From positions 95,837 through 159,836 of the IMG/VR virus record IMGVR_UViG_3300040801_002079: a stretch of 64,000 nt of DNA, one strand, 5' to 3'. Under the pieces are notes generated by a model that made no database searches, was not told the DNA's origin, and was given only the letters and a program-made list of their open reading frames with translations. Below are positions 7,218 through 60,675 of the stretch, one piece after another. Position numbers and translations under genes: made by a program. The first letter of the stretch is position 1, and each line of letters starts with the position of its first letter. This DNA comes from a virus.

Positions 7218-7220
7218 GGT

Positions 7221-30160: not shown

Positions 30161-30536
30161 TCAAACATCTTATAACAAAGCATTTAATCTGCGAATCAAT
30201 GAATGTTTGCAGAGTGTGGCACACTCATATGGGAATATTTTAGATATTCCCCGCAAAGCCGATATTATTTTTAATTATGAATTTATTAAAAAGGATTGGC
30301 TGGCAGCAGCGAGTGTTGACCCAAATGCTAAAGTTACTCAAAGCATCATATCCTTCAACCCTCTATATGTAGAAGAGTATTTTGATGAATTTATAGAAGA
30401 TATTATTCCCCATGAGTTATCACACATTATTTGTTTTTTAAATAGATTAGATGATGGGCATGGGAAAAACTGGAAAACATTGTGTCGTGAAATGGGCGGC
30501 ACCGGGGAAGAATTTCATAGGATCAGATACGCATGA
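30150..30536 (+). CDS. SprT-like zinc metalloprotease domain protein (putative)
   Basis: IPHELSHIICF ... HGKNW; start chosen at ATG 30150 within track ORF 30057..30536. Confidence 0.4.
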   Translation: MVLNQTSYNKAFNLRINECLQSVAHSYGNILDIPRKADIIFNYEFIKKDWLAAASVDPNAKVTQSIISFNPLYVEEYFDEFIEDIIPHELSHIICFLNRLDDGHGKNWKTLCREMGGTGEEFHRIRYA

Positions 30537-31270
30537 TTTATGCTATTGGTGACATTCATGGAACATATGTAAAACTGATACGCCTGTATCAGAAGATTAT
30601 GCTTCATATGAAATACAACGGGGTGAAACGAGCCACGATCATCTTTTTGGGTGATTATGTTGATCGCGGTCCACACCCACATAAAGTATTTGATTTCCTT
30701 ATGAATTTGAAAGATACTGATGAAATTAAGCACATCTTTTTAAAGGGAAATCACGAGGATATGATGATTCATGCTTATGATGGAGCAGACTATAAAGTAT
30801 GGGTTGCTAATGGTGGGAGAGATACATTAAATGCTTTTGACATTGGCTATCCTGAAGACTTTGTTGGCAATGAAGAAGTAAAGCCCTATATTGATTGGTG
30901 CCGACAACTTGATGTTATGCATGTTGTGGGTAAATATATTTTTGTTCATGGCGGATATGACCCAAAGCGTCCACCAAACGATCAAAAAGATGAAGTTTTA
31001 ATGTGGAAAAGAAGCACTCCTTACATGGATGGGAGAGAGTATGAAACGTGCGATTACACTATAGTGCATGGACATACTCCACATAAGGAACCCAAGATGT
31101 ATAAAAATGAAATCAATGTTGATACATTTGCATATTATGATGGGCCTCTTACAGCAGTTGCTATACCGGAAGATATTACCCAGTATAATGCTGATGACAT
31201 TTATGGTATGACAGATGATTGTTTCAATAAGGTAACCAATAATACTATTGAGTTCTTGACGGCTCAATAG
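30533..31270 (+). CDS. Ser/Thr protein phosphatase (metallophosphoesterase, lambda-PPase-like)
   Basis: GDIHG, GDYVDRG, GNHE motifs. Confidence 0.65.
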   Translation: MIYAIGDIHGTYVKLIRLYQKIMLHMKYNGVKRATIIFLGDYVDRGPHPHKVFDFLMNLKDTDEIKHIFLKGNHEDMMIHAYDGADYKVWVANGGRDTLNAFDIGYPEDFVGNEEVKPYIDWCRQLDVMHVVGKYIFVHGGYDPKRPPNDQKDEVLMWKRSTPYMDGREYETCDYTIVHGHTPHKEPKMYKNEINVDTFAYYDGPLTAVAIPEDITQYNADDIYGMTDDCFNKVTNNTIEFLTAQ

Positions 31271-35596: not shown

Positions 35597-38500
35597 TTAC
35601 CCTGAAACTGTCGGTGTTACGGTTATTGTCGGTGTAACCGTAGCTGTAACAGTTGGTGTAACCGTTAATGTCGGTGTAACCGTAGCTGTAACAGTTGGTG
35701 TAACTGTATTTGTTGGCGTAATCGTTGGTGTAACCGTAGTAGTCGGAGTTACTGTTGGGGTTAATGAAATAGTAGCTGTAACAGTTGGTGTAACGGTTGG
35801 TGTAGGAGTAGGAGTAGCTTCGATGCCCTTCCATTTTAAAACCAGAGAGTCAATAACTTGCTCAACTGTGAAATCATTTAATCCACCCTGAATAAAAATA
35901 ACTTCACCTATATCAGCATTGAGTCCATCAACCATTGTCATATCATTACAAAATATCCATGATTCATCCACAACAAATGAATCAACATCCAGTGTTCCAG
36001 TGTCAACAATTTCACTGTTATAATATGCCTTAACAGACGTACCATCCTTGAATATTCCACGAATAACAATTTCACCCGCTTCGGGATTATTTCCTACACC
36101 TTGTGTTAATGTTAATTCCGTTCCTCCATCTGGATAGAACGTAGCTATCGGTCCATCATCAACAGTGGAATTATAGAGTCTAATTCTTGCTGAACTTGTG
36201 TCGGTACTAGAAAAGAATGTGTCGGTGGAACTGTTAGCTATATTGGCAGTTACCCAGAACATCCCAACATTTGAAAAATCACTTATAGCGTTCCCCTGTG
36301 TTCCAACATTTACCGCGCCCGTCACACGGGCAACACTGAGGCCGTTAAATGCATTTTCTCTATATGTTATATTGGCTGCATTCCTCCATGAGGGCATTGT
36401 GCCGGAATTATTAACCCATGCAGAAACTGATTGACCATCAGTTGGGTTAGTTATAATTTCCCCCTCCGATGATCCCGTTGATAACCACTGTCCATCACTT
36501 GCGTCAAGCCATGTTATAACGGAAACATCCGTATCATCAATCCACCAATTTGGTTTATCATATAAGTCATGATATGTGAAGCCATTGCCGCTATTGTAGA
36601 AGAATGAAATGTCTCCATCAGCTAATAAAACATCACCGTGCACGGCTTGTCCTATATTGCCTTGGAATTTATATCCAGTATTGGAGCCATAAAGTCCCAT
36701 ATTGGTGTACATCCATTGATTGTCACCAGTATTAGACGTTGGATTAGATGGGGTGTTGGTTACAGTATGCCACTCAAACGGAGACCCGTTTACAGAAATT
36801 CCCATTCTGCCAAGAGTTGAATCCCATTGGACGCAAATTAAATATCGCTGAAGTCTCTGATATTCTTCACTGAATAGTAAAATTTCATCGTCAATTAAAT
36901 CTGAATTATTTCTACAAACAAACGCTATTTCGTTTCGGTGTGTACCAAAACTATCAGATATTGATATGCCGGAATCATAAGGGTTATAGGGATTATTAAC
37001 TTCACTCACGTACCTAATCCCTCGTCCTCTGAGCATCAAGAACCACCCATCTCCTTGCCCATCTTCGCCTGCTGGTCCCTTTTCTGAGCCAACACTTATA
37101 AGCGTTTTATCAGAAACATCTTCCATTGGCTCACACCATATCCAGTGGAACCAATCATTATCAAAATTAAATGATTCTGCTCTTGTTGAACCACTATTCC
37201 ATCCAGATGTTGAATTATTTGAAAGCACATTATATTCCCTTCCAGTTATCATATCTTCATCTCTAACGGTGGAAATATCCCATGGAGTTGACATATCAAA
37301 TTCATAAAAAGCGTCATAGGCATGTGTCATAAAGAGCTTTGTACCATCTGAGCTAATATCAATTCCATATATCTGCGATGAATCACCTTGCAGGTAATTA
37401 AAGTTATGACTGTTAGTTAATGTTGCGCTGGTTATATCCCAAGCCGTACTCAGTGTATATTGTTCAAGCTCTGCAAAATCTGCTGTTCTATTGCGGCACA
37501 TTACATACATTTCAGTGCCATCGGGCTTAAATTTTAATCCTACTGGAGAGTCGGAGGTTGACGTTGTTGCAAGTGGAGTTCCACCAGATACACTTGATGT
37601 TATATCCCATGGTGTTCCTAATGTGTATTCAGAGATAGCATCTGTGCCAATAGATGTGCCGAAGAACTTTGTTCCATCGGGGCTAATATAAATACCATGC
37701 ATCTCACTATTAACTACAAGCTCCCCCGCAATGGGTGCAGCATTTATATCCCAAGGTGTTGAGCATGTTAACTGATAAATCTTAAATGTGCTGGGATTTC
37801 TCTCTTCTACCGATACATAGAGACTGGTGCCATCGGGACTGAATATAGCAGCATTTGTAGCGGCCCAGCGTGATATATCTTCAACATCAGGATGATAAAG
37901 ATTGCGTCTATTCCCATCACATGTTGCTGTTGTTACATCCCATGGCGTTGACAGTGTAAATGTGAACAAATCGCTGCCGAATTCGGTAAGGATATATAAT
38001 TTGGTTCCGTCTGAAGATATATCCATATCCTGTGGAACCCCATCCCAGAAATTAATTTCAAATCTACCTTCTAGTGTTGCTGTGCTCAAATCTTTAGGTG
38101 TTGACATTAGATATTGTGTAATCCAATTACCCTCTTCACCTAAAATATACAATCTGGTATTATCATCGCTTATATGAAGCGCTCTTGCTCCGCTGTGTAG
38201 GCTTTCATCTACTGATAGTTCAATACTATCATAAGTCATGGTACTAATGTCCCATGGAGTTGAAAGGCTAAATGAATGCAATGCAAAGTAATCTGCTGGC
38301 ACTAAATATCGATCAGCTATAGCAAAATATTTAGTTCCATCGGATGAAAAAGCTCCCCCATACTCTGCCCAATCAACGCCCAACGTCGATAAATCAAGGT
38401 AGTAATAACTTGTAGGGTCTAATGTTGTTATATCCCAAGCAGTGGATAGAGTATATGATGCTACGCCACCATTGCCGTGCTCATACATAATCAAACCATC

Positions 38501-40219
38501 TGAGGAAAATTCAATACCATCTTCTTCACCTACATAATAATTAGTATCACTTGTTTTATAATCGGTGTACGCTGAATTTATATCCCATGGTGTTCTTAAC
38601 TCTATCTGATAAACATTGTCTTCCCATGATCCATAAAAATAAAAATATCTACCATCTATGCTAAAAGTTGATGCTAGGGTGCCACCATCTATCCAAGAAA
38701 AGAATTTAGCATTTGATACATGTGCCCCCTCTATTGACCATGGTTTGTTAATTGTTTGCTCACATATTCCACTATTCCCGAAATCTGTCACGAATAACCG
38801 TGTCCCATCATCTACAAAGTGTATACCAGTAGGATTTTGCCACGGTTCCGTTACGTGCATTCTTTCCACAATATTGGTGAGGTTCATCGGATCAAACCCT
38901 TCGTCTCTTATATTCGTGGTTCTATCTCCGGTTGTTTCATCCCAATATGCCGTTTTTATAAATGCCCCGGAACTCTCGTCTGCTGTGTTTTCGTTTGTTA
39001 TAACAGGCTTTTCTCTGGAAGCATCTTGATTAAACTCGAACCATGTGATAACACTTGGGTATATTGGAGGAGCGGGTGACGGCGTAGGGGTTGGTGCCAG
39101 ATAAACATATTCGATGATCAGTTTTTCAGATATTCCAACCTTAACATGTGAATGTTTGGGCGTACTACACTCACCATCACCGTCAAATCCAGCCGTATTA
39201 ACATATCCATATAATTTAACGAATCCAGTGCTTGCAGATGTTGGGACCAAATCAGCTAGATGTATAATGGTTTCATTCGCATTTTTATCATATTCAGATC
39301 GAATAATCTTATACTGCTTATCACTATCTGTCCCAGTATCTTCAATTTCAATATAACGATTAGGAAGCATACCGGTTCTTAATTGAATACTTCCGTGATT
39401 AGAACCTTCTGTTGTATTCGTAAACGAAGTTTGGGTCGTACTATGTAAATTTATTGTTGTAAAGTTGCCATCGAAGTTATAACTTTCGATTAAATATGCT
39501 CCGTTATTCTTGTTACCAATTTTATATTCGACAATGGCGTTATCCAATCCAACCGCTATTGGTTTACTCTCAGATATAACAATTGTTGTAATATTTGATA
39601 TGGAATCGTATGTTGCAGATAGTACAGTGTACATATCGTCATCAACATCCGCATTATATAGTTTAAACCTGCCCTCATTGATCAACTCTTGTGTATAATT
39701 TCCCTTAACAAGAATTTGTGTCTCTGTGGTAGTGTGTACATCAAGGGTTCTTACGGGAACAACCAAAAATAATTTCTGAAAAGCTAGCTGTGGACGAATA
39801 TCGCCCCTAACCACAATTGAATCATATGTTGGTATGGAATCAATTTGTGCGCGAACATCATATGTGTTATTACCTGAAATGCGAACGGTGTCAGTTACGT
39901 TTTCTATTTCATTGATGGGCAATACGTTTACAAGATCGGAGTTATCAAAAATTACACCATAACCACCAAGACACTCAAACAAATCACAGCAGTCAACCGA
40001 GTCGAATCCACATTCGCCATCCCATGTATATCCATAACCCACTGTTTGACACAAGGGATTATTTTTATAGTCGATGTTAAAAAATATATTTTCCTCGAAC
40101 TTTACATCCAAATCTTCTCGAAAATTATAGTTCTCAATAATTTCTAGAATTTTCGTATGGTACGGTTTAACGTCAAGAAAATATTTTTTAAACGAGTCGG
40201 TTGGTCTTGAGTTAGTCAT
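35597..40219 (-). CDS. giant tail-fibre/structural protein (1540 aa) with repeated STPWDI modules and C-terminal Thr-Pro-Val linker
   Basis: At least 9 copies of L(S/G)TPWDI(S/T) at roughly 60-70 aa spacing; C-terminal (TPTV)n tail; ATG with upstream GATAAATA. Confidence 0.65.
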   Translation of the reverse strand: MTNSRPTDSFKKYFLDVKPYHTKILEIIENYNFREDLDVKFEENIFFNIDYKNNPLCQTVGYGYTWDGECGFDSVDCCDLFECLGGYGVIFDNSDLVNVLPINEIENVTDTVRISGNNTYDVRAQIDSIPTYDSIVVRGDIRPQLAFQKLFLVVPVRTLDVHTTTETQILVKGNYTQELINEGRFKLYNADVDDDMYTVLSATYDSISNITTIVISESKPIAVGLDNAIVEYKIGNKNNGAYLIESYNFDGNFTTINLHSTTQTSFTNTTEGSNHGSIQLRTGMLPNRYIEIEDTGTDSDKQYKIIRSEYDKNANETIIHLADLVPTSASTGFVKLYGYVNTAGFDGDGECSTPKHSHVKVGISEKLIIEYVYLAPTPTPSPAPPIYPSVITWFEFNQDASREKPVITNENTADESSGAFIKTAYWDETTGDRTTNIRDEGFDPMNLTNIVERMHVTEPWQNPTGIHFVDDGTRLFVTDFGNSGICEQTINKPWSIEGAHVSNAKFFSWIDGGTLASTFSIDGRYFYFYGSWEDNVYQIELRTPWDINSAYTDYKTSDTNYYVGEEDGIEFSSDGLIMYEHGNGGVASYTLSTAWDITTLDPTSYYYLDLSTLGVDWAEYGGAFSSDGTKYFAIADRYLVPADYFALHSFSLSTPWDISTMTYDSIELSVDESLHSGARALHISDDNTRLYILGEEGNWITQYLMSTPKDLSTATLEGRFEINFWDGVPQDMDISSDGTKLYILTEFGSDLFTFTLSTPWDVTTATCDGNRRNLYHPDVEDISRWAATNAAIFSPDGTSLYVSVEERNPSTFKIYQLTCSTPWDINAAPIAGELVVNSEMHGIYISPDGTKFFGTSIGTDAISEYTLGTPWDITSSVSGGTPLATTSTSDSPVGLKFKPDGTEMYVMCRNRTADFAELEQYTLSTAWDITSATLTNSHNFNYLQGDSSQIYGIDISSDGTKLFMTHAYDAFYEFDMSTPWDISTVRDEDMITGREYNVLSNNSTSGWNSGSTRAESFNFDNDWFHWIWCEPMEDVSDKTLISVGSEKGPAGEDGQGDGWFLMLRGRGIRYVSEVNNPYNPYDSGISISDSFGTHRNEIAFVCRNNSDLIDDEILLFSEEYQRLQRYLICVQWDSTLGRMGISVNGSPFEWHTVTNTPSNPTSNTGDNQWMYTNMGLYGSNTGYKFQGNIGQAVHGDVLLADGDISFFYNSGNGFTYHDLYDKPNWWIDDTDVSVITWLDASDGQWLSTGSSEGEIITNPTDGQSVSAWVNNSGTMPSWRNAANITYRENAFNGLSVARVTGAVNVGTQGNAISDFSNVGMFWVTANIANSSTDTFFSSTDTSSARIRLYNSTVDDGPIATFYPDGGTELTLTQGVGNNPEAGEIVIRGIFKDGTSVKAYYNSEIVDTGTLDVDSFVVDESWIFCNDMTMVDGLNADIGEVIFIQGGLNDFTVEQVIDSLVLKWKGIEATPTPTPTVTPTVTATISLTPTVTPTTTVTPTITPTNTVTPTVTATVTPTLTVTPTVTATVTPTITVTPTVSG
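35629..35712 (-). repeat. 42-bp tandem repeat x2 encoding TPTV linker
   Basis: tcggtgtaaccgtagctgtaacagttggtgtaac... repeated. Confidence 0.6.
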
Positions 40220-40285: not shown

Positions 40286-40915
40286 ATGAGATTTGTAAAG
40301 TATCCAAAAACAAACTATCTGCCATGGTCACGCTCTATTGGTGAGGGAGACCGTGTACTTAAACATATGGATATATTTGAAAATCAGCGAGTTATTGTAA
40401 CTGAAAAAATGGATGGTGAAAATACCACCATGTATCACTCTAAGATTCATGCTCGTTCTCTGGATTCCGTTAATCACCCCTCTAGAAACTGGGTGAAAAA
40501 TTATTGGGCATCTATTCAATATAATATCCCACATGATATTCGAATTTGCGGAGAAAACTGCTTCGCAAAACATTCTATTCATTATACCAAATTGCCATCA
40601 TATTTTCTAGGATTTAATGCTTGGAAAGAAAACACATGTCTAGAATGGGATGAAACTATGGAATTATTTTCAACCATAGGTATATCTCCCGTCAAAGTTT
40701 TATACGATGACATATATGATGAAAACTTAATTCGAACTATTCCAATAAATGAATCTAAGTGTGAAGGCTATGTTATGCGCCTAGCGCGATCATTCACTAT
40801 GGATGAGTTTCCGCGTGTTGTCGGAAAGTATGTAAGAGAAAATCATGTACAGACCGATGAGCATTGGATGAAAGGTCCAATGATACCCAATATTCTTAAG
40901 GAAATAACACTATGA
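40286..40915 (+). CDS. ATP-dependent RNA ligase family protein (KxDG motif I)
   Basis: VTEKMDGEN nucleotidyltransferase motif I; start ATG 40286 (MRFVKYPK) within track ORF 40247..40915. Confidence 0.55.
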   Translation: MRFVKYPKTNYLPWSRSIGEGDRVLKHMDIFENQRVIVTEKMDGENTTMYHSKIHARSLDSVNHPSRNWVKNYWASIQYNIPHDIRICGENCFAKHSIHYTKLPSYFLGFNAWKENTCLEWDETMELFSTIGISPVKVLYDDIYDENLIRTIPINESKCEGYVMRLARSFTMDEFPRVVGKYVRENHVQTDEHWMKGPMIPNILKEITL

Positions 40916-43607: not shown

Positions 43608-43881
43608 AGTAGTACACTGTCAGAGCGAACCATATGATATTTATATTGGTAGACCCAGTATATGGGGTAATCCGTTCAAAATAAATGATGGGATGACCCG
43701 CAAAGAAGCTATAAATGCCTATAGGGATTGGATTCTATATTCCCCAGATGCTGAAGAGCAGCGATCTAAATTACACACATTAAAAGGAAAAACACTTGGA
43801 TGTTGGTGTAAGCCAAAATCATGTCATGGGGATGTTTTGGTTGAATTAGCCGACAATAACGTGCTAGACTTGCTATCATGA
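43579..43881 (+). CDS. DUF4326-family protein (CWC motif)
   Basis: YDIYIGRPS...GNPF...GCWCKPKSCHGDVL. Confidence 0.5.
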   Translation: MSSRKLIDTKVVHCQSEPYDIYIGRPSIWGNPFKINDGMTRKEAINAYRDWILYSPDAEEQRSKLHTLKGKTLGCWCKPKSCHGDVLVELADNNVLDLLS

Positions 43882-44324
43882 AATACATTAAACAGGACAT
43901 AACAAAGGTTGAGCGTGGCATCATTGTTCATGGAGTGAATTGTTTAGGTGTTATGGGCAGTGGTGTCGCGCTAGCTATTCGAAACGCCTTTCCAGTTGTA
44001 TATGAAAAGTTTAAAGATGCCCCCACTGGAAAAGACATGTTGGGCACCACCCATATGATTACTGTAAAAGATGATCTTTATGTTGCGAATTGCTACACCC
44101 AAGTGAACTATGGTTCAGATAACAGGCGTTACGCAGACTTAGATGCTGTTCGTAAATGTTTAACGGATTGCTATGATTTTGCCGATTTAATGCAACTCCC
44201 ATTATGTTCAGCTAAAATAGCTAGCCTTCGCGGTGGTCTGGATTGGGATACAGAAGTTGAACCTATTTTTTTGGAACTAAATAAAGAGTATACGAACGTA
44301 GACGTTGCAATTTACTATATATAG
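43878..44324 (+). CDS. macro-domain protein (ADP-ribose binding/hydrolase)
   Basis: GIIVHGVNCLGVMGSGVALAI macro signature. Confidence 0.6.
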   Translation: MKYIKQDITKVERGIIVHGVNCLGVMGSGVALAIRNAFPVVYEKFKDAPTGKDMLGTTHMITVKDDLYVANCYTQVNYGSDNRRYADLDAVRKCLTDCYDFADLMQLPLCSAKIASLRGGLDWDTEVEPIFLELNKEYTNVDVAIYYI

Positions 44325-44333
44325 GAGTATACT

Positions 44334-44519
44334 ATGCTTATTGATGGAACAAACGCTAGTACAGCAAAATACAATGTAATCGTTAATGGAAGAGTGGTTC
44401 GACACAAGGTTCCAAAAATGGTTGCTGAAAACTACATTATAAACTTAGATGAAAATTCACAGAAAGAGGCCAAAATGGTCCCCGTAACTGATGAAGGAAA
44501 AGAAATCTTATTAGGATAG
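44334..44519 (+). CDS. hypothetical protein
   Basis: ORF track, 61 aa. Confidence 0.45.
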   Translation: MLIDGTNASTAKYNVIVNGRVVRHKVPKMVAENYIINLDENSQKEAKMVPVTDEGKEILLG

Positions 44520-44522
44520 GAA

Positions 44523-44729
44523 ATGGACTTAGAGAAAAAGGAACAGCTAGAAAAGCTGCATGACGGAATTGAAGAATTTTTAACATTTATTGAAGAACAC
44601 GAGGATATTGAAGAGGAAGATGGCGAGTATGAGTTTTTAGCCGATGAATCTGGTGTATCCAATACTGAATGGGATAATTTTATTGAATCCCTTAATGTTG
44701 TTAGTGAACATATTGAAAAATTAAAATAG
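44523..44729 (+). CDS. hypothetical acidic protein
   Basis: ORF track, 68 aa. Confidence 0.5.
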   Translation: MDLEKKEQLEKLHDGIEEFLTFIEEHEDIEEEDGEYEFLADESGVSNTEWDNFIESLNVVSEHIEKLK

Positions 44730-45095
44730 ATGTATACTGCATACGTATTAACAGAAAAATCTAGAAAGACCCTGTTCTTTCTTTTTCCACCAAAATATCC
44801 TGAGGTTATTGGTCACCATATAACCGAAACCTTCGGGGTTTCCAAAGATGCTGAAGCTCCGGAAATGCCAACGCTTGTTGAGGTTGTTGGCTACATCGAC
44901 AATGGTGATGGAGTTGAGGGATTCTTGGTGGAAATAGACGGGTCTAGTGATCGCCCATCTGGTGGTAAATATCACATTACATGGTCAATTGATCGTGATA
45001 AGGGATATAAGCCTGTTAATACTAATGATTATACAAATGATGCAAAACCGGTTAAGCCTGTACGATTGCAGGTTGAACCCAAAGTGCTCCGGTAG
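44730..45095 (+). CDS. hypothetical protein
   Basis: ORF track, 121 aa; its TAG stop lies inside the tRNA. Confidence 0.5.
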   Translation: MYTAYVLTEKSRKTLFFLFPPKYPEVIGHHITETFGVSKDAEAPEMPTLVEVVGYIDNGDGVEGFLVEIDGSSDRPSGGKYHITWSIDRDKGYKPVNTNDYTNDAKPVKPVRLQVEPKVLR

Positions 45096-45163
45096 CTCAG
45101 TTTGGTTAGAGCAAGAGCTTCTAAAACTCATGGTCGTGGGTTCGAATCCCGCCCGGAGCGCCA
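45086..45163 (+). tRNA. tRNA with CUA anticodon (amber-suppressor type); identity unknown; CCA encoded
   Basis: Cloverleaf read by hand: acceptor GCTCCGG/CCGGAGC, D-arm GCTC-AGTTTGGTTA-GAGC, anticodon loop TTCTAAA (U33-CUA-A37), T-arm GTGGG-TTCGAAT-CCCGC, discriminator G, CCA. Anticodon stem has only 3 Watson-Crick pairs. Confidence 0.6.
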
Positions 45164-45175: not shown

Positions 45176-45484
45176 ATGTTGACAGAAGGCAAATACAGAA
45201 GTAACATAAAAACTGCGGTGTCTAATGTTAGACCTAACCGTCCACCACCAGCACCTAAGGGAACTAATACAGTGAAAAAGTCCAGAATAGACATAGATGT
45301 AAGCCCTGAAGTCTTTGTTGAAATTTACGAAGCTGTAAGCGATGAAGATACAAAAGCATTTGATATAAATCTCTTTGTTGACGGTAAGTTAGCAGGGAGA
45401 ATGACAGACATAAGTGCGGAAGATGGGGGCACTTTTTCAACATTAAACGCAAATGCAAGGAGAAATATAAAAGATGAGCAATAA
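45176..45484 (+). CDS. hypothetical protein
   Basis: ORF track, 102 aa. Confidence 0.5.
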   Translation: MLTEGKYRSNIKTAVSNVRPNRPPPAPKGTNTVKKSRIDIDVSPEVFVEIYEAVSDEDTKAFDINLFVDGKLAGRMTDISAEDGGTFSTLNANARRNIKDEQ

Positions 45485-45719
45485 TGAATTAGAAAGAGTT
45501 GAAAGATTGCAAAAAGTGGACATTAGTCCGGGTGATATACTGATTGTTTACGTAGATTATGGTAAACTTCCATCAGATAAAAGAGAGGCGTATGCTGAAA
45601 ATATCTTAACATATTACAAAAAGGCGTTACATCGAAGTGCGCTTAAAGATGTTAATATAATATTAGCGCCTAACACTTTTGATCATGCCGTTCTTCACGT
45701 AGTGGAAGAGCATATATAA
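45474..45719 (+). CDS. hypothetical protein
   Basis: ORF track, 81 aa. Confidence 0.5.
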   Translation: MSNNELERVERLQKVDISPGDILIVYVDYGKLPSDKREAYAENILTYYKKALHRSALKDVNIILAPNTFDHAVLHVVEEHI

Positions 45720-45752
45720 ATAATTTTATAGCCAAAGGAAGATAAAATTATG
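45715..45752 (+). promoter_or_regulatory. late-promoter/RBS cassette copy A (TATAAATAATTTTATAGCCAAAGGAAGATAAAATT-ATG)
   Basis: Exact TATAAATA plus AAGGAAG RBS directly before ATG 45750; 35/38 identical to copy B. Confidence 0.45.
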
Positions 45753-46034
45753 AATCAGTTTAGGGGGAGAGTTCCAAATTATGTTGATGCCGGTGAACTT
45801 CCTGAATTTGAGTTCGAAACCGAAGAAGAATTACTATCACACTATTGGCTCAAACATTGGACAGAAATGAGTGATTTTAAAGAATTTCGTTACTCTCCTA
45901 CTGGACGCAAAAGGGATTATGCTTATTATTTAATGGCAATAATTAAAACACCTCTGTTTAAAAAGAATGAACATTGGGTTATGGGATTTATAAAGTCATT
46001 AGATGGATTATCATTTAAAGAGTGGAAGGAATAG
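45750..46034 (+). CDS. hypothetical protein
   Basis: ORF track, 94 aa. Confidence 0.5.
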   Translation: MNQFRGRVPNYVDAGELPEFEFETEEELLSHYWLKHWTEMSDFKEFRYSPTGRKRDYAYYLMAIIKTPLFKKNEHWVMGFIKSLDGLSFKEWKE

Positions 46035-46039
46035 CAAGG

Positions 46040-46077
46040 TATAAATAATTTTATAACCAAAGGAGGATAAAATCATG
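46040..46077 (+). promoter_or_regulatory. late-promoter/RBS cassette copy B, followed by 2-codon ORF ATG-ACA-TAG
   Basis: TATAAATAATTTTATAACCAAAGGAGGATAAAATC-ATG. Confidence 0.4.
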
Positions 46078-46108
46078 ACATAGATTTACATACGTGGATC
46101 ACCATAAG

Positions 46109-46150
46109 TTAGTACCAAATTTAATATCGAATTTAGTACCAAATTTAATA
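46109..46150 (+). repeat. 18-bp direct repeat x2 (TTAGTACCAAATTTAATA) upstream of gene 46172
   Basis: Copies at ~46109-46126 and ~46133-46150. Confidence 0.5.
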
Positions 46151-46171
46151 CTTAACTTATGGAGATTTAAA

Positions 46172-46636
46172 ATGGAAACATTAGTAAAACAAGACGTAAA
46201 CTTGACAAACGAAATCACATCGTTCTTTGATTCCAAGGAACATTACTTAGAATTCATCGCTGCATGGAAAAAAAGCATAGCTGATGGATATCATGAAAGA
46301 CAGAAGTATACACACCGCATTTATGTTGATGGGTCCCACAAAGAAGTGGAGCTTAAGCATCCATCAAAGTTAACATGCGTTCATCACTTAATCTATAATG
46401 CGTTACGCAAAAAAGATTTACATAAATCTTTTGCACCGTTAACCAGCGAAGGTAAAATAAATGCCAACGCTTATCGTGATCCATATTATGCATTTAGACG
46501 AGCATGTGATGTTCTAGACCGCAATGTAACATCTCGTTGGGGTAGAACCGATTGGATCAAGGAGCCTTTTGGTGATACAGTAACAGATGAGATGTTAATT
46601 AAGTTGAATGCAGCGTTAAAATGTGTTAAGCTGTAA
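46172..46636 (+). CDS. hypothetical protein
   Basis: ATG with GGAG RBS (METLVKQD); track ORF 46094..46636 extends upstream through the repeats. Confidence 0.5.
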   Translation: METLVKQDVNLTNEITSFFDSKEHYLEFIAAWKKSIADGYHERQKYTHRIYVDGSHKEVELKHPSKLTCVHHLIYNALRKKDLHKSFAPLTSEGKINANAYRDPYYAFRRACDVLDRNVTSRWGRTDWIKEPFGDTVTDEMLIKLNAALKCVKL

Positions 46637-46738: not shown

Positions 46739-47242
46739 ATGACTAGCAAGTATAAACTATATTTGGATATGGACGGTGTTGTGAGTGATATGGACGCTAT
46801 GATGGCAGATATCACTAATGGTGCGTCTGAGCAGCCAGATTACCCTAGGGGAAAATTCTGGGGTGCAGTGTCGCGTTACAATAAAGAGGTTGCTCCATTC
46901 TTTGAGTCACTTCCTAAAACGAAAGATGCTGATAAACTCGTACAGTTTGCGACTGATAATTTTGATGATGTTGCCTTTTTAACAGCATCGGGAACAACTC
47001 CCAAGGATGGGCCTGAGCAAAAGCGTAGATGGGTTGAAAAGCATTACCCCGGTATGAGGGTCATTGTGGTAACCAAAAGCGCTGAGAAGGCCGTGTATGC
47101 CAATCCTCGGTCAATTCTAGTGGATGATAGGGATAAGTCTATTAATCCATGGAGAAAAGCTGGTGGAGTTGGTATACTCCACACCTCAGTGAACGACACA
47201 ATTAATCAACTAAGCTCTTTTATGCCTGACCACCGTCAGTAA
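46739..47242 (+). CDS. 5'(3')-deoxyribonucleotidase (HAD family, NT5C-like)
   Basis: LYLDMDGVVSD HAD motif I. Confidence 0.55.
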   Translation: MTSKYKLYLDMDGVVSDMDAMMADITNGASEQPDYPRGKFWGAVSRYNKEVAPFFESLPKTKDADKLVQFATDNFDDVAFLTASGTTPKDGPEQKRRWVEKHYPGMRVIVVTKSAEKAVYANPRSILVDDRDKSINPWRKAGGVGILHTSVNDTINQLSSFMPDHRQ

Positions 47243-50723: not shown

Positions 50724-51178
50724 TGCAAATCAATGTCAGGGAAAAGAAAATAGAAGATGGTCGCTTTGGGTTCTTTGGCCCAACGTCCGTACTCTTTACA
50801 CCCTTTACAAAAATCATATGTGGGGTGTTATTGGTTGGTTTACTGGGAAGTTTGGGTGTAACTACTTGGAAGGTTTTTGAAACAAAAAATCTGAAAATTG
50901 AATTACTTGAAGTAAAGAATGATAATACGCACCTGAATAATGAACTGGATATCTGTAAATTTGAATTGGACGATACAAATATTAGAATTGCAGAAATACA
51001 AGCGGCTTCAGAAAAGGATATGCAGATCATAAGGGAAGTTAATGAAGAACTCAGTAAACTTACCGTTGAACAGAAAAAAGAAATTAATAGACTGAAATCA
51101 TTACCCGCACCAGAGGGGTGTGATGGAGCCACGGAATGGTTACGGGATAATCTGGACATATTTACGAGGCAGCAATGA
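50723..51178 (+). CDS. i-spanin-like protein (N-terminal TM, periplasmic coiled coil)
   Basis: Topology read from the sequence; overlaps the following lipoprotein gene. Confidence 0.4.
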   Translation: MQINVREKKIEDGRFGFFGPTSVLFTPFTKIICGVLLVGLLGSLGVTTWKVFETKNLKIELLEVKNDNTHLNNELDICKFELDDTNIRIAEIQAASEKDMQIIREVNEELSKLTVEQKKEINRLKSLPAPEGCDGATEWLRDNLDIFTRQQ

Positions 51179-51636
51179 AAAATCTAATAGTGTTAAGCAT
51201 AAGTGCAATCATACTAATGGGCTGTGGTCATCAGCAAGTTAAAACTGTATATCAGGATAAGTATATCCCCATACCTATTGTTCCAGCACCACCCGAGGTT
51301 GCAAAACCTGAATATTATTCAGAAACACTAACCGATGAGCAAAAAGAAGACATTGGTGAGTTGGCTAAAGCTTACGTTATAGACTCTAAGCAAGCAAAGG
51401 CTTATGCTGATAACCTTGAACGAGTGTATGAAACATACGGTGATATGGCAACAAGCTCAGAAAACCGATTAAAAGCATTAGAAAGTCTGGGAGCTACTGT
51501 TGATAGAAGTTTAATGGAGCAGGCATCTGCCGAGATTAATACTGAACTAAAATCACTATCTTTGCAAATTGAAACGAACAGCGAAGAGGTTGATTCGGAC
51601 ATAGAAGAACTCAGGCAGATGAAAAAGCCTGAATAG
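51175..51636 (+). CDS. lipoprotein (o-spanin-like, unusually long)
   Basis: Signal peptide plus LMGC lipobox, Pro-rich segment. Confidence 0.4.
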   Translation: MKNLIVLSISAIILMGCGHQQVKTVYQDKYIPIPIVPAPPEVAKPEYYSETLTDEQKEDIGELAKAYVIDSKQAKAYADNLERVYETYGDMATSSENRLKALESLGATVDRSLMEQASAEINTELKSLSLQIETNSEEVDSDIEELRQMKKPE

Positions 51637-51660: not shown

Positions 51661-51981
51661 ATGAAATTAAAAACTTTATTCGAAGCCAAAAAATCAGAAG
51701 ATAAGGTGGTATTTAAGGAAACTGATCCGCAGTTGCCGTTTCCTAATGATACCATCACGGCTATTAAAAAGAGAATTAATGTTTTTGCTAAGGACTTGAC
51801 AACCGACTGGGATAGTGCAGTTGAAATGTTAGATGCTGTCCTTATGGAATTGAAAGTTCCAAAGCCTCAAGCTTATTTAAAAGAGCGGTGGAGACAATAC
51901 CAAGAGTTAATTGAATTTACAGTAGAAAATTTATATGACTCTAGGGGCTTTGGTGGCAACTGGAATAGAGTTGTAAAATAA
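51661..51981 (+). CDS. hypothetical protein
   Basis: ORF track, 106 aa. Confidence 0.5.
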   Translation: MKLKTLFEAKKSEDKVVFKETDPQLPFPNDTITAIKKRINVFAKDLTTDWDSAVEMLDAVLMELKVPKPQAYLKERWRQYQELIEFTVENLYDSRGFGGNWNRVVK

Positions 51982-51995: not shown

Positions 51996-53447
51996 ATGAG
52001 TATAGACTATTTAAAAGAAATGTTAGACCTAAACCCATCTAAAGTGGAATCGGATATACCGACACCCCACTCAGATTCACTTGACAACAAATTGAGCATT
52101 GTTAAGTACTCAGAGGCCAAGCAAATCTTAGAGCATCCTGAAGTTTATCCTGTGCTCAAAGAAATGAAAGCTTTTGATCTTTTAAATGAACACGATGTTG
52201 ATACTTATCACACACTAGCAATATGGGTATCAGAAGCTTTAGAGGTTTTCGCAACCGAGAACTTCGGAACAGCGCAGGCAATTGATTTTAATGAGAAGTT
52301 CATTCTTCGTTCCGTAACTGAAGGACTGAATGATTTTTCTAGTGAGTTCTTGACGGAATTTACAAAGAAGCGCTTTATGGATACGGATGATGGAGAGGTG
52401 GAAAAATCACTAGATGTGCCTTCACAGTCAACGTCATGGCTTGATAAGCTTGCTGCGAAGTTTGGAATCTCTGAATTTGGTATAAAAGACTTTCTTTACC
52501 TCTATCTCTTAAATAGGATGGGTCAAGGTAAAGAAGATACAAAGTTTATGAAGCCCCCTGTAACGGAGGCTATGGCTCTTTTCCTAAATGAAAAGGCTCC
52601 ACCGGGAATGGAAGGCTGGATCAACAGTGTTAAAGCTAAGTTCCAAAAAGAATATGGGGATGATTGGGAAGAGGTTTTATACTCAACTGCATGGAAGAAA
52701 TATAAAGCTAATAAAAAGAAAGTAAACGAAGGCTTTATGGACAAGGAAATTCCTCATGAAGAAATGATGCGATCAATGGAGCAGGCTGGTTGGGAAGAAA
52801 ATGGTGGAACGGCTTTATGGTCTCACCCCGATCACCCCGATTTCTGGGTTGATGGAAATACCGGATATATCTATGTTTATCCAACAAGACCCTTATCTGG
52901 CCCGTTTACAGCGGAAGATGATTTTCTTGAAACATTCGACAATATGGGAGACTTTCTCAATTGGGTAAACAGTGGGGAGGCAGATGAACGTGCTGCTAAA
53001 TATAAGAGAATGGCAACCGATGCTGGTTGGAGAGGATATGTTGAAGAGGATGACATGAGCAAAGTAAATGAAGATGTAGATGATATGTATGGTGGAGCTA
53101 CGAAACAGGAACACTTCCCTCGCCCAGAGGACAAAAAGGCTCCGAAGGCATCATCTAAAGTAAAATCTGACGTTAGCCAACGTATTAAAGAGCTTGATAA
53201 ATTGATTCGGGATTATAAGGAAAAAACACACTTCTTTGGTGAGGTTAAGCCCGCCATATTTAATGCTAAAGAAGCATTAGAAGAGATTCAGGGCAAAATT
53301 AATGATGGATCGATGGATGCATACAAAGAAGCACAGATTCATTTCCAGAAACTAATGAGTCCGATCACTAACTTATTCCCACCAAGCTTGGTTAAGTTTC
53401 TAGCATACGGGAATGATGGAGAAGAAAATAAACCTAAAGATGTTTAA
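51996..53447 (+). CDS. hypothetical protein
   Basis: ORF track, 483 aa. Confidence 0.55.
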   Translation: MSIDYLKEMLDLNPSKVESDIPTPHSDSLDNKLSIVKYSEAKQILEHPEVYPVLKEMKAFDLLNEHDVDTYHTLAIWVSEALEVFATENFGTAQAIDFNEKFILRSVTEGLNDFSSEFLTEFTKKRFMDTDDGEVEKSLDVPSQSTSWLDKLAAKFGISEFGIKDFLYLYLLNRMGQGKEDTKFMKPPVTEAMALFLNEKAPPGMEGWINSVKAKFQKEYGDDWEEVLYSTAWKKYKANKKKVNEGFMDKEIPHEEMMRSMEQAGWEENGGTALWSHPDHPDFWVDGNTGYIYVYPTRPLSGPFTAEDDFLETFDNMGDFLNWVNSGEADERAAKYKRMATDAGWRGYVEEDDMSKVNEDVDDMYGGATKQEHFPRPEDKKAPKASSKVKSDVSQRIKELDKLIRDYKEKTHFFGEVKPAIFNAKEALEEIQGKINDGSMDAYKEAQIHFQKLMSPITNLFPPSLVKFLAYGNDGEENKPKDV

Positions 53448-54139: not shown

Positions 54140-54615
54140 TTCGCTGTAAACCTATTATTTTTGACCTTATTCCATGCCGTTTTAAACTTGATTCTTAATG
54201 TATTTATCTGTCCAACTCGTTTTATTATCTGATCCTTCTTAAACGAATCAACAATGAATGTTCTAGTAACACGCTTCTTACGGAACTTAACTACGAACGT
54301 AAGCTTATATTTCTGCTCTTCCGGTAAATCATCGTCCCATCCAGATGGATACGATGCTCCACCACCTCCACCTCCACCTATTCCCGGTGATGGGCTTGGG
54401 CTGGGCGTAACCGAGGGAGACGGTGTAATCGTTGGAGTAACAGTGGGGGTTAACCCACTGGTGGGCGTTGGAGTGGGCGTTACAGATGTTGCCGTGGGAG
54501 TAGGGGTGACACCCAATGGTTCAATGTATAAATGAAATGGACCAAATATTAAAAGATTACACGCTGGGCCACCTAACCCCTTGGTTATAATACTTCCAAC
54601 GCCTATGTTCATCAT
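54127..54615 (-). CDS. structural protein with TP linker, poly-Gly tract, basic C-terminus
   Basis: ORF track, 162 aa. Confidence 0.5.
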   Translation of the reverse strand: MMNIGVGSIITKGLGGPACNLLIFGPFHLYIEPLGVTPTPTATSVTPTPTPTSGLTPTVTPTITPSPSVTPSPSPSPGIGGGGGGGASYPSGWDDDLPEEQKYKLTFVVKFRKKRVTRTFIVDSFKKDQIIKRVGQINTLRIKFKTAWNKVKNNRFTAKWKK

Positions 54616-55979
54616 TATTGTGGTACTCTTTCTGCAACTTCATCTGTGCTTGGCGTTCCAGTGCTATCCAATAATGCAAATGTTAGTATTGGAGTTACAT
54701 CATCATCATCATATATAGTAAGAGTATTATTGTCTTTATCAATTACGCTTCTATTCTCTTCATATTTCTGTAGAAGTGCAAGCACTTGTGCTATACTGGT
54801 TAATGAAGCTAGGGTGGAATCCTTCTCTGCTGTTGTCCAAACAGGGGATAGACCCTTTCTAATAACAGTTACCGCACCACCAGATTCATCTGTTATATGT
54901 CCAGTTCCTCTAACCACTATTGTTCCAGCAGTGCATGTACTATCAATGATTAGATGACCTGATAATAAATCCACGCTGCATAAATTATTTGCATCACTAT
55001 AGTTCTTTATCCTAATTCCGCCCGTGTAGGGTCTTAATTGCAATTCGAGGTTCGGATGATTATTACAATCAATGATGGGTGAACTGGTTCCGGGAATAAG
55101 TGAAAAACAGTCCAAGAATGAATAGAACGAATTACTGAAGCCACTGGATGGGAGTGTTATGGTTCCCAATAGGCCACACTTGGATGCATCCCCTTCGAAA
55201 TTGGAGAAATCTTCTATAATCCCTTCTTCCAATGAAAAGTTTCCGGAAGCATATCCAGCCATGTATAAACGTCTGAATGTACATTCATGGACATCTTGAC
55301 CAGAAAATATCAACCCAGTTGTTGTCGGGTCTCTACCAAGAAAATCAGAATGTGACCAGTCACTCGTTGGAGCCGTATTTGCCTGAAAATATCCATTTAG
55401 ATGAACCCTTCTTGGCAATCCCCTATTAATCATTATAGCATATGCATCAGTTAAATTATCAACCGGATATGATGTCGTACCGCGTGGATACTGTGATCCG
55501 GGTCCACCAACCACATTATCAGTCCATATTCTACCGTCAATAAATGATTGATCTTCAATTTCTTTTGAATATGTTAAACCGGCTGAGTTTGCAGATCGTA
55601 CAGAGACTTGGTTAACATTTGTTACGTCAGCAATGTTTGTGTTGCCGCCGACTAGGTTAACAGCATATTGTCCATTCTCAAATGTAATGGTATACCCATT
55701 AATGATTTCGATAACTCGTGCAAGCGTAACGCCACCAACTGTAACAGGTTGGTTATGTGAGTGGGTGTCTAAAAACGACATACCCTCAATGCTTGCTTCC
55801 AGAGCCTTTAACTCTAATCGAAACAGGTTAACGTCCAATTCACGAATTTCAGTGGGGGTAGATTGTACCAATAGAAGATAGCTTCGGGGAACATGAATTA
55901 TCTTGTTTCCCCAATCGATGTATATTCCTGATGCAATATACCCACTTTCTACATATCCACTATCAACATAATCTGCCAT
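54615..55979 (-). CDS. tail-fibre-like structural protein
   Basis: ORF track, 454 aa; ATGA overlap with downstream gene. Confidence 0.55.
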   Translation of the reverse strand: MADYVDSGYVESGYIASGIYIDWGNKIIHVPRSYLLLVQSTPTEIRELDVNLFRLELKALEASIEGMSFLDTHSHNQPVTVGGVTLARVIEIINGYTITFENGQYAVNLVGGNTNIADVTNVNQVSVRSANSAGLTYSKEIEDQSFIDGRIWTDNVVGGPGSQYPRGTTSYPVDNLTDAYAIMINRGLPRRVHLNGYFQANTAPTSDWSHSDFLGRDPTTTGLIFSGQDVHECTFRRLYMAGYASGNFSLEEGIIEDFSNFEGDASKCGLLGTITLPSSGFSNSFYSFLDCFSLIPGTSSPIIDCNNHPNLELQLRPYTGGIRIKNYSDANNLCSVDLLSGHLIIDSTCTAGTIVVRGTGHITDESGGAVTVIRKGLSPVWTTAEKDSTLASLTSIAQVLALLQKYEENRSVIDKDNNTLTIYDDDDVTPILTFALLDSTGTPSTDEVAERVPQ

Positions 55980-57344: not shown

Positions 57345-59288
57345 TCAAGCATCTGAGGTCCTGATCGCGGCGATTGTACCACCGGTACTCGTTAGCGTTG
57401 ATGGTGCCTCAAACGTCTTAATAGGCGTTGATCCACCATCTCTAACTCGTACAAACAATGCTCTATCACCTAGACCATTATTATAAATGGTTGTGAACGT
57501 TGCTGTCGTAGTAGCATCAGCAATTTCATCAATATAAGCAATAAAGATGTTATTGCCGGTTGTAGCGTCTGCATCATCAGACCCCTGATATGCGCCACTT
57601 AGCGTGTAAACAGAACCAGTGTATGAGGTATATGCCTGTGGAGCATATACGCCATTATCGTCCTGAACACGAACAATACCACTAGCTGGAGTATCAACAG
57701 GAATCGAAGAGGTGGTTGTAATGGTAGTTGAAACGTTATCAGTTAATGTACCATTAATCGTATCCTGATCTTTCTGTAGAATACCCGCTGCACGAGGTCC
57801 AACCAATACTCTATCCTCAGCCTCAACCAAACCAGTTACCGTGAAGGTTACATTGTTTGGAGGAATCTGCGCTGTACCCGATAGGTCTTCTAGAGAATCC
57901 GATGCTCGTAGATCATCTGGGTCAACACCAATACCGTATGCACCAATCAACGAACCCGTATATGATCCGAGGAAGGTTTTTGGAACGGTACGTGCTGTTG
58001 GAGCACCATTTACATCTGCTGTTGCACTAGAGGTTAATCCTCTAACTGGCAAATCATCAACAGGGGCAGAGCCAGTTTGTAACTGAATGTACATGTTGCC
58101 CGTTGTACCATCATCATCCAATGCTAATAGCAATCCGCTACCGCCGTTATTAGCATTGTTTAGAATGGTCGTATCAACTGCTGCTGTAACTGCACCAGTT
58201 CCATCAGCCACAGTGATAACATCGTTATCAGCAATAGTGATTGTTGGGTCTTCAAGAGCAACAATCATGTTAGTTGAGCCATTGTCGTACATCACACGAC
58301 CCGCAGCACCATTGGTTCCAATTGTTACATAATCGCCAGCAGAGAATGTTCCACCCGATAATGTGTCATATGTAATATCGGTTCCCCATACTACAACCTC
58401 ATCTTCTTGGAATGGACCGCTAGCTTCATTGTCATAAGCAAACGAGTGTGTAATTCCCAAGAATAGCTCACCGTTAATACCATGAATGGTTTTGGCTGTG
58501 CCATTACCAGTAAGGTCTTTGATGAATTCCCACATACCTTTAAGGCCGTCACCCGATGTATCAGCGCCATATGTCCAACGAGAGTAGTATTCTCTAGCAC
58601 CACTACCGTTATTAAGATCAATGGTCTGGAATCCTTCGGTGTTTGTTACGTGCGTATATGCAGTAACTGTACCCTGTGAAGTGTCATTTTGTGCGTCAGG
58701 TGTTGTACCGATAGCCGCAACGGACTCACCCTGTCCCAAGGTTACGTTGAAGAAGTCGTATGAATCGCCCCAGTGACGAGCTTGTACACGAATTCTTTTA
58801 CCATTAATATCTGCACCATTCACACGAGATTTAATCAAAACCCTCATAAGAATACCAGCAGCAGTGTTACCATTGTAACCACCCGATGACTGATCGCCCC
58901 AGAAAGGAGCAGATGGTGTAGTAGTAAACTGATAAAGCTCATTATCCTGAATGATCATAAGCTGTGTGTTCGCGTTATTTACAGCACCAAGTACCTGTAG
59001 TCCAGAATAAACGGTGTCACCATCATCCTGAGTAATAGAACCAGCATAGAGATGTTCTGCTGCCGTATCATCGATGTTGTACGTACCTAGCAACGTGATA
59101 ATGTTATCCGTTGAACGCTCAGATGGTGTATCCGAGGTAATGTCAATTAGGTCATTACCCGATGCACTCGCGTCATCAGCTAGGTCTTGTAAGAATCGGT
59201 GAAGTTCCAATACAGTGTAGTTTGCTGTTGTTCCTGTATATCTAATGTCCCCATTTACGGCAACACTGAAATCGTCTGCAATAGCCAT
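57345..59288 (-). CDS. large structural protein (tail-fibre/tailspike-like)
   Basis: ORF track, 647 aa, Thr/Gly/Asn/Asp-rich. Confidence 0.55.
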   Translation of the reverse strand: MAIADDFSVAVNGDIRYTGTTANYTVLELHRFLQDLADDASASGNDLIDITSDTPSERSTDNIITLLGTYNIDDTAAEHLYAGSITQDDGDTVYSGLQVLGAVNNANTQLMIIQDNELYQFTTTPSAPFWGDQSSGGYNGNTAAGILMRVLIKSRVNGADINGKRIRVQARHWGDSYDFFNVTLGQGESVAAIGTTPDAQNDTSQGTVTAYTHVTNTEGFQTIDLNNGSGAREYYSRWTYGADTSGDGLKGMWEFIKDLTGNGTAKTIHGINGELFLGITHSFAYDNEASGPFQEDEVVVWGTDITYDTLSGGTFSAGDYVTIGTNGAAGRVMYDNGSTNMIVALEDPTITIADNDVITVADGTGAVTAAVDTTILNNANNGGSGLLLALDDDGTTGNMYIQLQTGSAPVDDLPVRGLTSSATADVNGAPTARTVPKTFLGSYTGSLIGAYGIGVDPDDLRASDSLEDLSGTAQIPPNNVTFTVTGLVEAEDRVLVGPRAAGILQKDQDTINGTLTDNVSTTITTTSSIPVDTPASGIVRVQDDNGVYAPQAYTSYTGSVYTLSGAYQGSDDADATTGNNIFIAYIDEIADATTTATFTTIYNNGLGDRALFVRVRDGGSTPIKTFEAPSTLTSTGGTIAAIRTSDA

Positions 59289-60640: not shown

Positions 60641-60675
60641 ATTAAACTAACCCATGTTACATAGGAGGTATGAAC

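Follow-up and report, generated by a model that had tools for sequence, protein, structure and literature searches.

A predicted XacN1-type amber-suppressor tRNA from a phage with TAG as an ordinary stop codon

The stretch of DNA analyzed here, 64,000 nucleotides (nt) of a virus genome (IMG/VR record IMGVR_UViG_3300040801_002079, positions 95,837 to 159,836; hereafter, the window), carries a gene for a transfer RNA (tRNA) with the anticodon CUA, which reads the amber stop codon UAG, in surroundings where TAG is in regular use as a stop. The features of this gene, in window coordinates, are the following:

45086..45163, plus strand: tRNA gene, 75 nt plus encoded CCA, anticodon CUA (ARAGORN; Rfam RF00005)
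45114..45130, plus strand: anticodon arm AGAGC-UUCUAAA-ACUCA, with the signature of the tRNA family described below (sequence; Rfam NC line)
45121..45123, plus strand: anticodon C34-U35-A36 (ARAGORN, gene position 36; Infernal alignment)

Results

The tRNA gene and its anticodon

The tRNA gene with a CUA anticodon is real and is confirmed in every detail. It is the single tRNA that ARAGORN reports in the whole window (45086-45163(+), anticodon cta), and Rfam model RF00005 matches 45086-45160 along its full length (model positions 1-71) with 61.1 bits, the gathering score being 29 (E = 8.9e-11). In the Infernal alignment to this model, UUCUAAA is the 7-nt anticodon loop, and two non-standard pairs are flagged in the anticodon stem. 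A preliminary description of this DNA, which relied on folding by hand, had arrived at the same cloverleaf of 75 nt plus CCA with CUA in a 7-nt loop, and the two predictors bear it out, both giving CUA. They also agree with its statement that no other register is better: a tRNA-Arg with the UCU anticodon would require the 9-nt loop CUUCUAAAA, which neither predictor chose, and that register is ruled out. Position 20 is U in this tRNA as against A in the aligned phage Arg-UCU tRNAs.

The acceptor stem is GCUCCGG/CCGGAGC, followed by the discriminator G73 and by CCA encoded at 45161-45163. The core reads as that of a regular tRNA, with U8, A14, G18G19, the T-loop GTTCGAATC, U33 and a purine at position 37; this purine is A37, within the run A36-A37-A38. 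The anticodon stem, AGAGC/ACUCA, is the unusual part: as the preliminary description had counted, and in line with the Rfam flags, it holds only three Watson-Crick pairs (G28-C42, A29-U41 and G30-C40), flanked by A27·A43 and C31·A39. The minimum-free-energy fold of the isolated arm in ViennaRNA is a 3-bp stem with a 9-nt loop. Together with 25-27 nt of flanking sequence, the tRNA is 100% identical in four separately assembled contigs (L033-L036) from other samples of the same series of the Joint Genome Institute (JGI; 3300040774-79, matching contigs of at most 6.4 kb). Because four independent assemblies carry the identical sequence, the A-run of the loop is real, and a sequencing or assembly artifact is ruled out.

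ARAGORN labels the gene 'Pyl', the default name this program gives to any CUA anticodon. In a pyrrolysine tRNA, the anticodon stem would be expected to have 6 bp and the variable loop 3 nt, with a single base separating the acceptor stem from the D stem; the D-loop would be small and lack G18G19, and pylS and pylBCD genes would be linked. Here, the anticodon stem nominally has five positions, the variable loop has 5 nt, the D-loop has 10 nt with GG, and U8 and A9 follow the acceptor stem, so that tRNA-Pyl is ruled out; no Pyl genes turned up among the approximately 60 window proteins that were scanned. Beside the tRNA, we found neither a theta or hepatitis delta virus (HDV)-like ribozyme nor any other RNA.

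The window employs the standard genetic code

Translation in the window follows the standard code, with TAG as an ordinary stop. Our own codon-usage-based gene call, in which the small open reading frames (ORFs) are called crudely, yielded 127 genes under the standard code, with 92% of the window coding; 67 of these genes end in TAA, 31 in TGA and 29 in TAG (23%). The three genes that the preliminary description had put forward for a genuine TAG stop (3603-3836, 3826-4230 and 7875-9536) are indeed among those that end in TAG, one of the three encoding a 553-aa protein. None of the large ORFs (1540, 647, 553 and 496 aa, and others) is interrupted under code 11, and treating TAG as a sense codon lengthens the ORFs no more than treating TGA as one does. 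With this coding density under code 11 and 29 of the 127 genes ended by TAG, the window does not look like DNA recoded to code 15.

The TAG stops nevertheless differ somewhat from the other two. The next in-frame stop lies at a median distance of 13 codons after TAG vs 6-7 codons after TAA or TGA (Mann-Whitney p = 0.001), with many distances of 0-1 codons for TAA and TGA and none for TAG, and the base that follows is evenly spread after TAG, whereas A or T is preferred after TAA and TGA. TAG is commoner in small genes, ending 19 of the 57 genes shorter than 100 aa vs 3 of the 23 genes of at least 200 aa, and is mildly clustered: twice, four or more genes in a row end in TAG (permutation p = 0.015). 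An extension of 41 codons past the TAG of the gene at 10997-11224 is within chance, given that 17 of the 98 genes ending in TAA or TGA extend for at least 30 codons.

A phage-specific family of CUA tRNAs

The best match of the tRNA in INPHARED is the 'tRNA-Sup' of Xanthomonas jumbo phage XacN1 (84.7% identity), followed at about 80% by phage tRNA-Arg(UCU) and tRNA-Lys genes. XacN1 has two tRNA-Sup(CUA) genes (AP018399.1, 36047-36122 and 36130-36205), duplicated in the terminal repeats of its genome, and in both the arm reads AAGAGC-YUCUAAA-ACUC, including C31·A39, the same as in the window except at position 32. Xanthomonas phage Xoo-sp13 has a further CUA tRNA with C31·A39 (MN047793.1, 36791-36866; L087, 594-669), which is missing from the GenBank annotation. 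A sense anticodon in the homologs, which the preliminary description had named as refuting its call, is thus not what is seen: they carry CUA.

The window tRNA shares with those of XacN1 and Xoo-sp13 the C31·A39 mismatch, a weak 27:43 position, the encoded CCA, a body of the Lys/Arg type and the setting of a standard-code jumbo-phage genome. Its discriminator G73 occurs in one of the two XacN1 copies; position 32, however, is U here and C in both phages. The gene is also single, isolated and flush against a protein gene, whereas the XacN1 copies lie in a tRNA array within the terminal repeats. The window has a GC content of 38%, and TAG accounts for 23% of its stops, compared to 18 amber stops among the 592 genes of XacN1.

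The window tRNA carries the family arm RGAGC-YUCUAAA-ACUC with C31·A39 on a class-I, Lys/Arg-like body. Further members of the family are found in IMG/VR, and pattern scans of metagenomes recovered 42 more, with highly diverse acceptor stems and mostly A73; the number of metagenomic phage tRNAs with this arm is about 50. Taken together with its flanks, the full anticodon arm has no exact match in IMG/VR or in the metagenome collection. When the three anticodon bases were left free in the search, the arm, where it lies in a tRNA, read CUA in 10 of 11 cases, the exception being a Leu-UAG tRNA in IMG/VR (L152, 9487-9558(+)), and every match outside a tRNA was protein-coding sequence. Among 185,579 bacterial and archaeal species, each represented by one genome, not a single tRNA contains the arm, all 7 exact matches being located outside tRNAs.

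Covariation among 12 members reveals double changes in 10 pairs, including all 7 of the acceptor stem and 2 of the anticodon stem; 91.7% of the cells of the alignment are paired, and the observed score was not attained in any of 500 shuffles. C31·A39 is kept across the 12, even though one transition, at either 31 or 39, would suffice to re-establish pairing, but 9 of the 12 had been picked for having C·A, the copies in the window, XacN1 and Xoo-sp13 being the ones not so picked. Of 378 ORFs of at least 100 aa around the family members, 55 have TAG as their stop, and because of this, we place the family in standard-code surroundings. In a comparison of similarity only, the body of the window tRNA is nearest to the tRNA-Lys(UUU) of Xoo-sp13 (82%), the best similarity to a tRNA-Gln being 69%. 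Judging by these comparisons, the CUA family is phage-specific and under selection for the cloverleaf, and the single signature arm with C31·A39 marks a widespread lineage of CUA tRNAs that is confined to phages.

Two further observations concern the relatives. At L043, 4340-4425(-), an IMG/VR contig contains a degenerate sequence that resembles a tRNA and has the same CUA arm; ARAGORN does not call it, and it is possibly a decaying copy. Phage genes for transfer-messenger RNA (tmRNA) occur within a few kb of CUA tRNAs in XacN1 (L037, 4066-4486) and in an IMG/VR contig (L143, 2693-3045); tmRNA and a suppressor tRNA both act on termination and non-stop events.

Weakness of the anticodon stem

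The mismatch next to the loop is not a peculiarity of the window. In a set of 49 distinct phage CUA tRNAs with the same type of D-arm and T-arm (IMG/VR loci L041-L085 and the window tRNA), positions 31:39 are mismatched in 19, vs 12 of 152 neighboring non-CUA tRNAs (Fisher p = 1.6e-6, a value that overstates the evidence given that the sequences are related), and most of these 12 have anticodons that end in A. Positions 27:43 are mismatched in 20 of the 49 and in 18 of the 152, respectively. The stem of three pairs, together with the conserved C31·A39, probably makes for a suppressor of low efficiency.

The junction with the upstream gene and the chain of TAG-terminated genes

The tRNA gene is preceded by four genes and followed by a cluster of small ORFs:

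43878-44324, plus strand: macro domain ORF (YmdB-like)
44334-44519, plus strand: 61-aa ORF
44523-44729, plus strand: 68-aa ORF
44730..45095, plus strand: 121-aa ORF with two H-x-T motifs, PHROG 36523, stop TAG at 45093-45095
45176..46636, plus strand: four small ORFs (102, 81, 94 and 154 aa; tblastn synteny)
46739-47242: NT5C-like gene

The last three codons and the TAG stop of the 121-aa ORF overlap positions 1-10 of the tRNA. The preliminary description had drawn attention to this stop, and its position within the tRNA (45093-45095) is correct; the special meaning that might be attached to it is not, because TAG here is U8-A9-G10, which is near-universal in tRNAs. In relatives without the tRNA, the C-terminus of the H-x-T protein has the same length, which means that the tRNA directly abuts the gene end. 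If RNase P cleaved at 45086, the upstream mRNA would lose its stop codon together with the 7 nt before it (45086-45092), and one transcript would accordingly yield either a full-length protein message or the tRNA, not both.

The tRNA is not a standing companion of this gene. None of 28 viral loci with a homolog of the H-x-T gene has a tRNA within 10 kb, and a conserved partnership between the two is rejected on this ground. In contigs L004, L005 and L007, the H-x-T and NT5C-like genes are about 60 nt apart, compared to 1.6 kb in the window, where the tRNA and the four small ORFs lie between them; no homologs of these ORFs (45176-46636) were found beside other CUA tRNAs. This arrangement suggests that the tRNA and the four small ORFs are a lineage-specific insertion. 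The possibility that the H-x-T protein is a 2H phosphoesterase is an unproven guess at the level of motifs; a sequence search of PDB gave no match for this protein, and the AlphaFold2 model made without an alignment has a predicted local distance difference test (pLDDT) score of 39.

The four ORFs at 43878-45095 share one frame and are separated by nothing but TAG. For all four there is a separate ATG and, for two, also a Shine-Dalgarno sequence that shares bases with the TAG (TAGGAG). The same four genes, in the same order, are present in relatives L001, L003, L008 and L016, where they are separate and end in TAA, TGA or TAG, at times with tandem stops or an extra intervening gene and in varying frames. 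A readthrough polyprotein at 43878-45095 as a conserved feature is thus rejected. Reading past the last TAG would translate the tRNA sequence itself into 28 junk codons.

Within the window, genes are joined in frame by a single stop in 2 cases for TAG, 1 for TGA and 6 for TAA, so that in-frame neighbors are not special to TAG, and a coding score beyond a TAG is confined to cases in which the following gene shares the frame by chance, with TAA and TGA behaving no differently. A chain of three small genes at 6843-7538(-) shares a frame and is separated by TAA only, with a single codon before each next gene, which indicates that such same-frame chains arise here without any link to TAG. The putative fusion of 51175-51636 with 51661-51981 was rejected as well: the homologs of the downstream protein are stand-alone in XacN1 and Xoo-sp13, and the XacN1 one, ORF219, overlaps its upstream gene in another frame. 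Altogether, the search of the 64 kb for a conserved in-frame TAG with coding sequence continuing downstream, a check that the preliminary description had itself proposed, returned none, an outcome that tells against programmed readthrough.

Gene content and affiliation of the window

The recognizable genes of the window are auxiliary ones, namely NAMPT, an NMN adenylyltransferase/Nudix (NMNAT/Nudix) gene, a dCMP-type deaminase, glutaredoxin and the NT5C-like nucleotidase, as well as an ArdC-like protein, an SPFH protein, an HNH endonuclease and others; none of the 64 kb is recognizable as a capsid, tail or terminase gene. Apart from those listed above, the genes of particular interest are:

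27273-28001: Thg1-like 3'-5' polymerase
30533-31270: metallophosphoesterase
40286-40915: RNA ligase (PF09414)
59480-62121: NAD-salvage genes NAMPT and NMNAT/Nudix
62824-63318: AAA_33/KTI12-type kinase

Searching INPHARED with megablast detected no near-identical phage. A small protein encoded at 51661-51981 has homologs only in the jumbo phages XacN1 and Xoo-sp13 and two Stenotrophomonas jumbo phages (51-56% identity), and the order ORF219, ORF218, NMNAT is common to the window and XacN1. From this resemblance, our preferred reading of the window is a region of auxiliary genes in a large phage that is distantly XacN1-like and probably a jumbo phage.

The Thg1-like protein, metallophosphoesterase, RNA ligase, YmdB-like macro protein, H-x-T protein and AAA_33/KTI12 kinase make up a set of the RNA- or tRNA-repair type, which suggests defense against host systems that cleave tRNA or RNA. 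NAMPT lies 0.1-5 kb from a family CUA tRNA in several other contigs (L095, L098, L108, L127 and L133), directly adjacent to it in L127 (13281-14397) and L133 (10796-12293); this proximity probably reflects a shared architecture of jumbo-phage auxiliary regions. Four large ORFs, 35597-40219(-), 57345-59288(-), 51996-53447(+) and 54615-55979(-), encode proteins of 1540, 647, 483 and 454 aa with essentially no match in Pfam or PHROGs. The 1540-aa protein has one short C-terminal PHROG match, whereas matches to the 647-aa protein (57345-59288) are absent from Pfam, PHROGs and INPHARED alike. The gene at 51175-51636, which ends in TAG, encodes a predicted lipoprotein of 153 aa with a signal peptide ending in LMGC and a coiled-coil-like acidic C-terminal part and could be a spanin-like lysis component; a SleB-type cell-wall hydrolase is encoded at 28276-28890.

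Discussion

On balance, we favor the interpretation, which we consider moderately probable, that the gene at 45086-45163 encodes a predicted functional phage amber-suppressor tRNA of the XacN1 type in a standard-code phage. Most likely, to go by its sequence, this tRNA would be a weak, general suppressor of UAG that is charged by the host and is probably of the Lys type rather than the Gln type. The kind of tRNA is already known from XacN1, and the conserved weak stem of the family seems to be the one feature worth an experiment. The parts of the preliminary description that concerned the molecule and its setting, that is, the cloverleaf, the CUA anticodon, the TAG-stop phage genome and the weak stem, have held up, whereas its functional idea, programmed readthrough of selected genes, gains no support in the window.

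Under the favored interpretation, the tRNA would be co-transcribed within a plus-strand operon, given that we saw no convincing promoter or terminator belonging to it. It would then be released through the host's RNase P and 3' processing, with CCA already in place. Charging would fall to a host synthetase, most likely lysyl-tRNA synthetase (LysRS), because U35 is kept, the body is nearest to tRNA-Lys, U20 is not the A20 of Arg, and the body seems unlike that of tRNA-Gln. The identity rules used for this assignment are those of E. coli tRNAs. The motif A36-A37-A38 is a recognized basis for modification of A37, which would here be a candidate for N6-isopentenyladenosine (i6A37). The charged tRNA would compete with release factor 1 (RF1) at UAG codons, and a low efficiency would let the phage tolerate the suppressor even though about a fifth of its genes end in TAG. 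Nothing in the window needs an amber suppressor, and there is no dedicated target there; our best guess as to the benefit is a low level of readthrough across the genome, a way to withstand nonsense changes or a ready-made pre-adaptation to recoding.

Several points weigh against this interpretation. The window represents 64 kb of a probably much larger genome, without recognizable structural genes, and recoding may occur elsewhere in it. The assignment to Lys rests on similarity and textbook identity rules. An anticodon stem with three Watson-Crick pairs could mean poor decoding or none at all. If suppression were strong, back-up stops might be expected after TAG, yet the window shows no surplus of them, its trend pointing the other way, and none of the 29 TAG-terminated genes has another stop within the next two codons.

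Precedents for a stop-reading tRNA in a phage that uses the same codon as a stop are at hand. XacN1 has its two CUA tRNAs, and readthrough of its 18 amber stops in silico gave no targets (PMC5852040), so that in neither phage has a readthrough target been identified. Such tRNAs have been noted without a demonstrated role in the standard-code jumbo phages RsoM2USA (CUA), Atu_ph07 (UCA) and phiKp24 (UUA); the likeness is one of situation, and two of the three read other stop codons.

A comparison with classical suppressors is also instructive. In the E. coli and T4 suppressors supE, supF and psu1+, CUA lies in a loop of the CUCUAAA type with A37-A38, and these tRNAs compete with RF1. They are single-step mutants of sense tRNAs and have normal stems, whereas the window tRNA belongs to an old, diversified phage lineage that keeps both CUA and the mismatched 31:39.

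Among the alternatives, partial recoding of TAG (code 15) in late or structural genes outside the window, with the window tRNA decoding it, deserves to be considered in the first place, although we think it unlikely. Recoded phages keep their early and replication genes in the standard code and employ CUA suppressors (10.1101/2021.08.26.457843; PMC13037316), these tRNAs being tied to TAG-to-Gln recoding of the late genes (10.1101/2021.08.26.457843); a window of auxiliary and nucleotide-metabolism genes without recognizable capsid, tail or terminase genes is what could be expected from the standard-code part of such a genome. As in the code-15 suppressors of crAss-like phages, Lak phages and Phass-1, the tRNA is phage-encoded, has the CUA anticodon and is presumed to be charged by a host synthetase. 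In code-15 phages, however, TAG occurs in frame within late genes, seldom serves as a stop and is translated as Gln, whereas TAG in the window is undepleted, even ending the gene for a 553-aa protein, and all the large ORFs are intact under code 11. XacN1, with the same tRNA family in a complete genome, uses the standard code, and elsewhere the family also occurs in TAG-stop contexts. Furthermore, by similarity, the body of the tRNA does not look Gln-like, in contrast to the known phage recoding of TAG to Gln, and the Phass-1 suppressor has a regular 5-bp anticodon stem, unlike the weak one here. The gain of a suppressor has been proposed to precede recoding, once the stop codon has become rare (10.1101/2021.08.26.457843); TAG is not rare in the window, unlike in this proposed pre-recoding state.

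The idea that the RNA does not decode at all but acts as a decoy or inhibitor of a host anticodon nuclease, or has another non-translational tRNA-like function, we regard as improbable, too. Phage tRNAs do counter anticodon nucleases (PMC10264068, PMC11464382, PMC11555353), the window is rich in genes of the RNA-repair type (those for the Thg1-like protein, RNA ligase, AAA_33 kinase, metallophosphoesterase and macro domain), and the anticodon stem is not only unusually weak but conserved in its weakness. A CUA tRNA is, however, no substitute for any cleaved sense tRNA, nor are suppressor tRNAs known to block any defense system. The features required in translation, moreover, are all kept, namely U33, A37, the T-loop, G18G19, CCA and a covarying acceptor stem of 7 bp.

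Programmed readthrough of specific TAGs, the functional proposal of the preliminary description, seems quite unlikely. The prime candidate would be the chain of the macro, 61-aa, 68-aa and H-x-T genes, which would give rise to fusion proteins: four consecutive same-frame genes that end in TAG abut the tRNA, the clustering of TAG into two runs of at least four is greater than expected (permutation p = 0.015), and the extension segments score as coding. These extensions are coding only as the next genes, though, which have ATGs of their own and, in two cases, Shine-Dalgarno sequences. The varied stops of the relatives, tandem at times, the in-frame neighbors with every type of stop and the TAA-separated chain of three genes at 6843-7538(-) all speak against a role for TAG as such; the last TAG of the chain leads only into the 28 junk codons of the tRNA, and there is no tRNA near any of the 28 homologous loci.

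That the gene is a decaying or neutral pseudo-tRNA, derived by mutation from a sense tRNA (Lys CUU or Arg UCU), is highly improbable, because, for all that its anticodon stem has two mismatches, that the family-like copy in L043 is too degenerate for ARAGORN, and that the loop is one change away from the CUCUUAA of Lys or a register shift away from the CUUCUAA of Arg, the gene scores high against the Rfam model, the arm stays exactly the same over acceptor stems that diverge widely and show compensatory changes, and IMG/VR tRNAs contain no sense-anticodon version of the arm except for the one Leu-UAG.

As it stands, the suppressor tRNA of the window is an expected feature of large phages. Tentatively, and against the odds as we see them, the tRNAs with the RGAGC-YUCUAAA-ACUC arm might be an old, dedicated lineage of deliberately weakened suppressors that serve a specific purpose in standard-code, often jumbo, phages. 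If so, the lineage would be neither neutral baggage nor a mere step towards recoding, and the purpose could be a tuned, low level of UAG readthrough that yields extended or fused proteins, for example, from the macro and H-x-T chain, or else the countering of a host defense that acts via translation termination or tRNA cleavage.

In this low-GC case, with about a fifth of the genes ended by TAG, tolerance of the suppressor cannot be ascribed to a rarity of TAG. The stop-reading tRNAs of standard-code phages (XacN1, RsoM2USA, Atu_ph07 and phiKp24) have been noted repeatedly but never explained, and in this respect, the signature arm of the family may be more useful than the single gene, providing a handle on whether these suppressors are deliberately weak. 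Should the role of these tRNAs turn out to be regulatory or directed against host defense, it would matter for the control of translation in phages and for the annotation of phage genomes.

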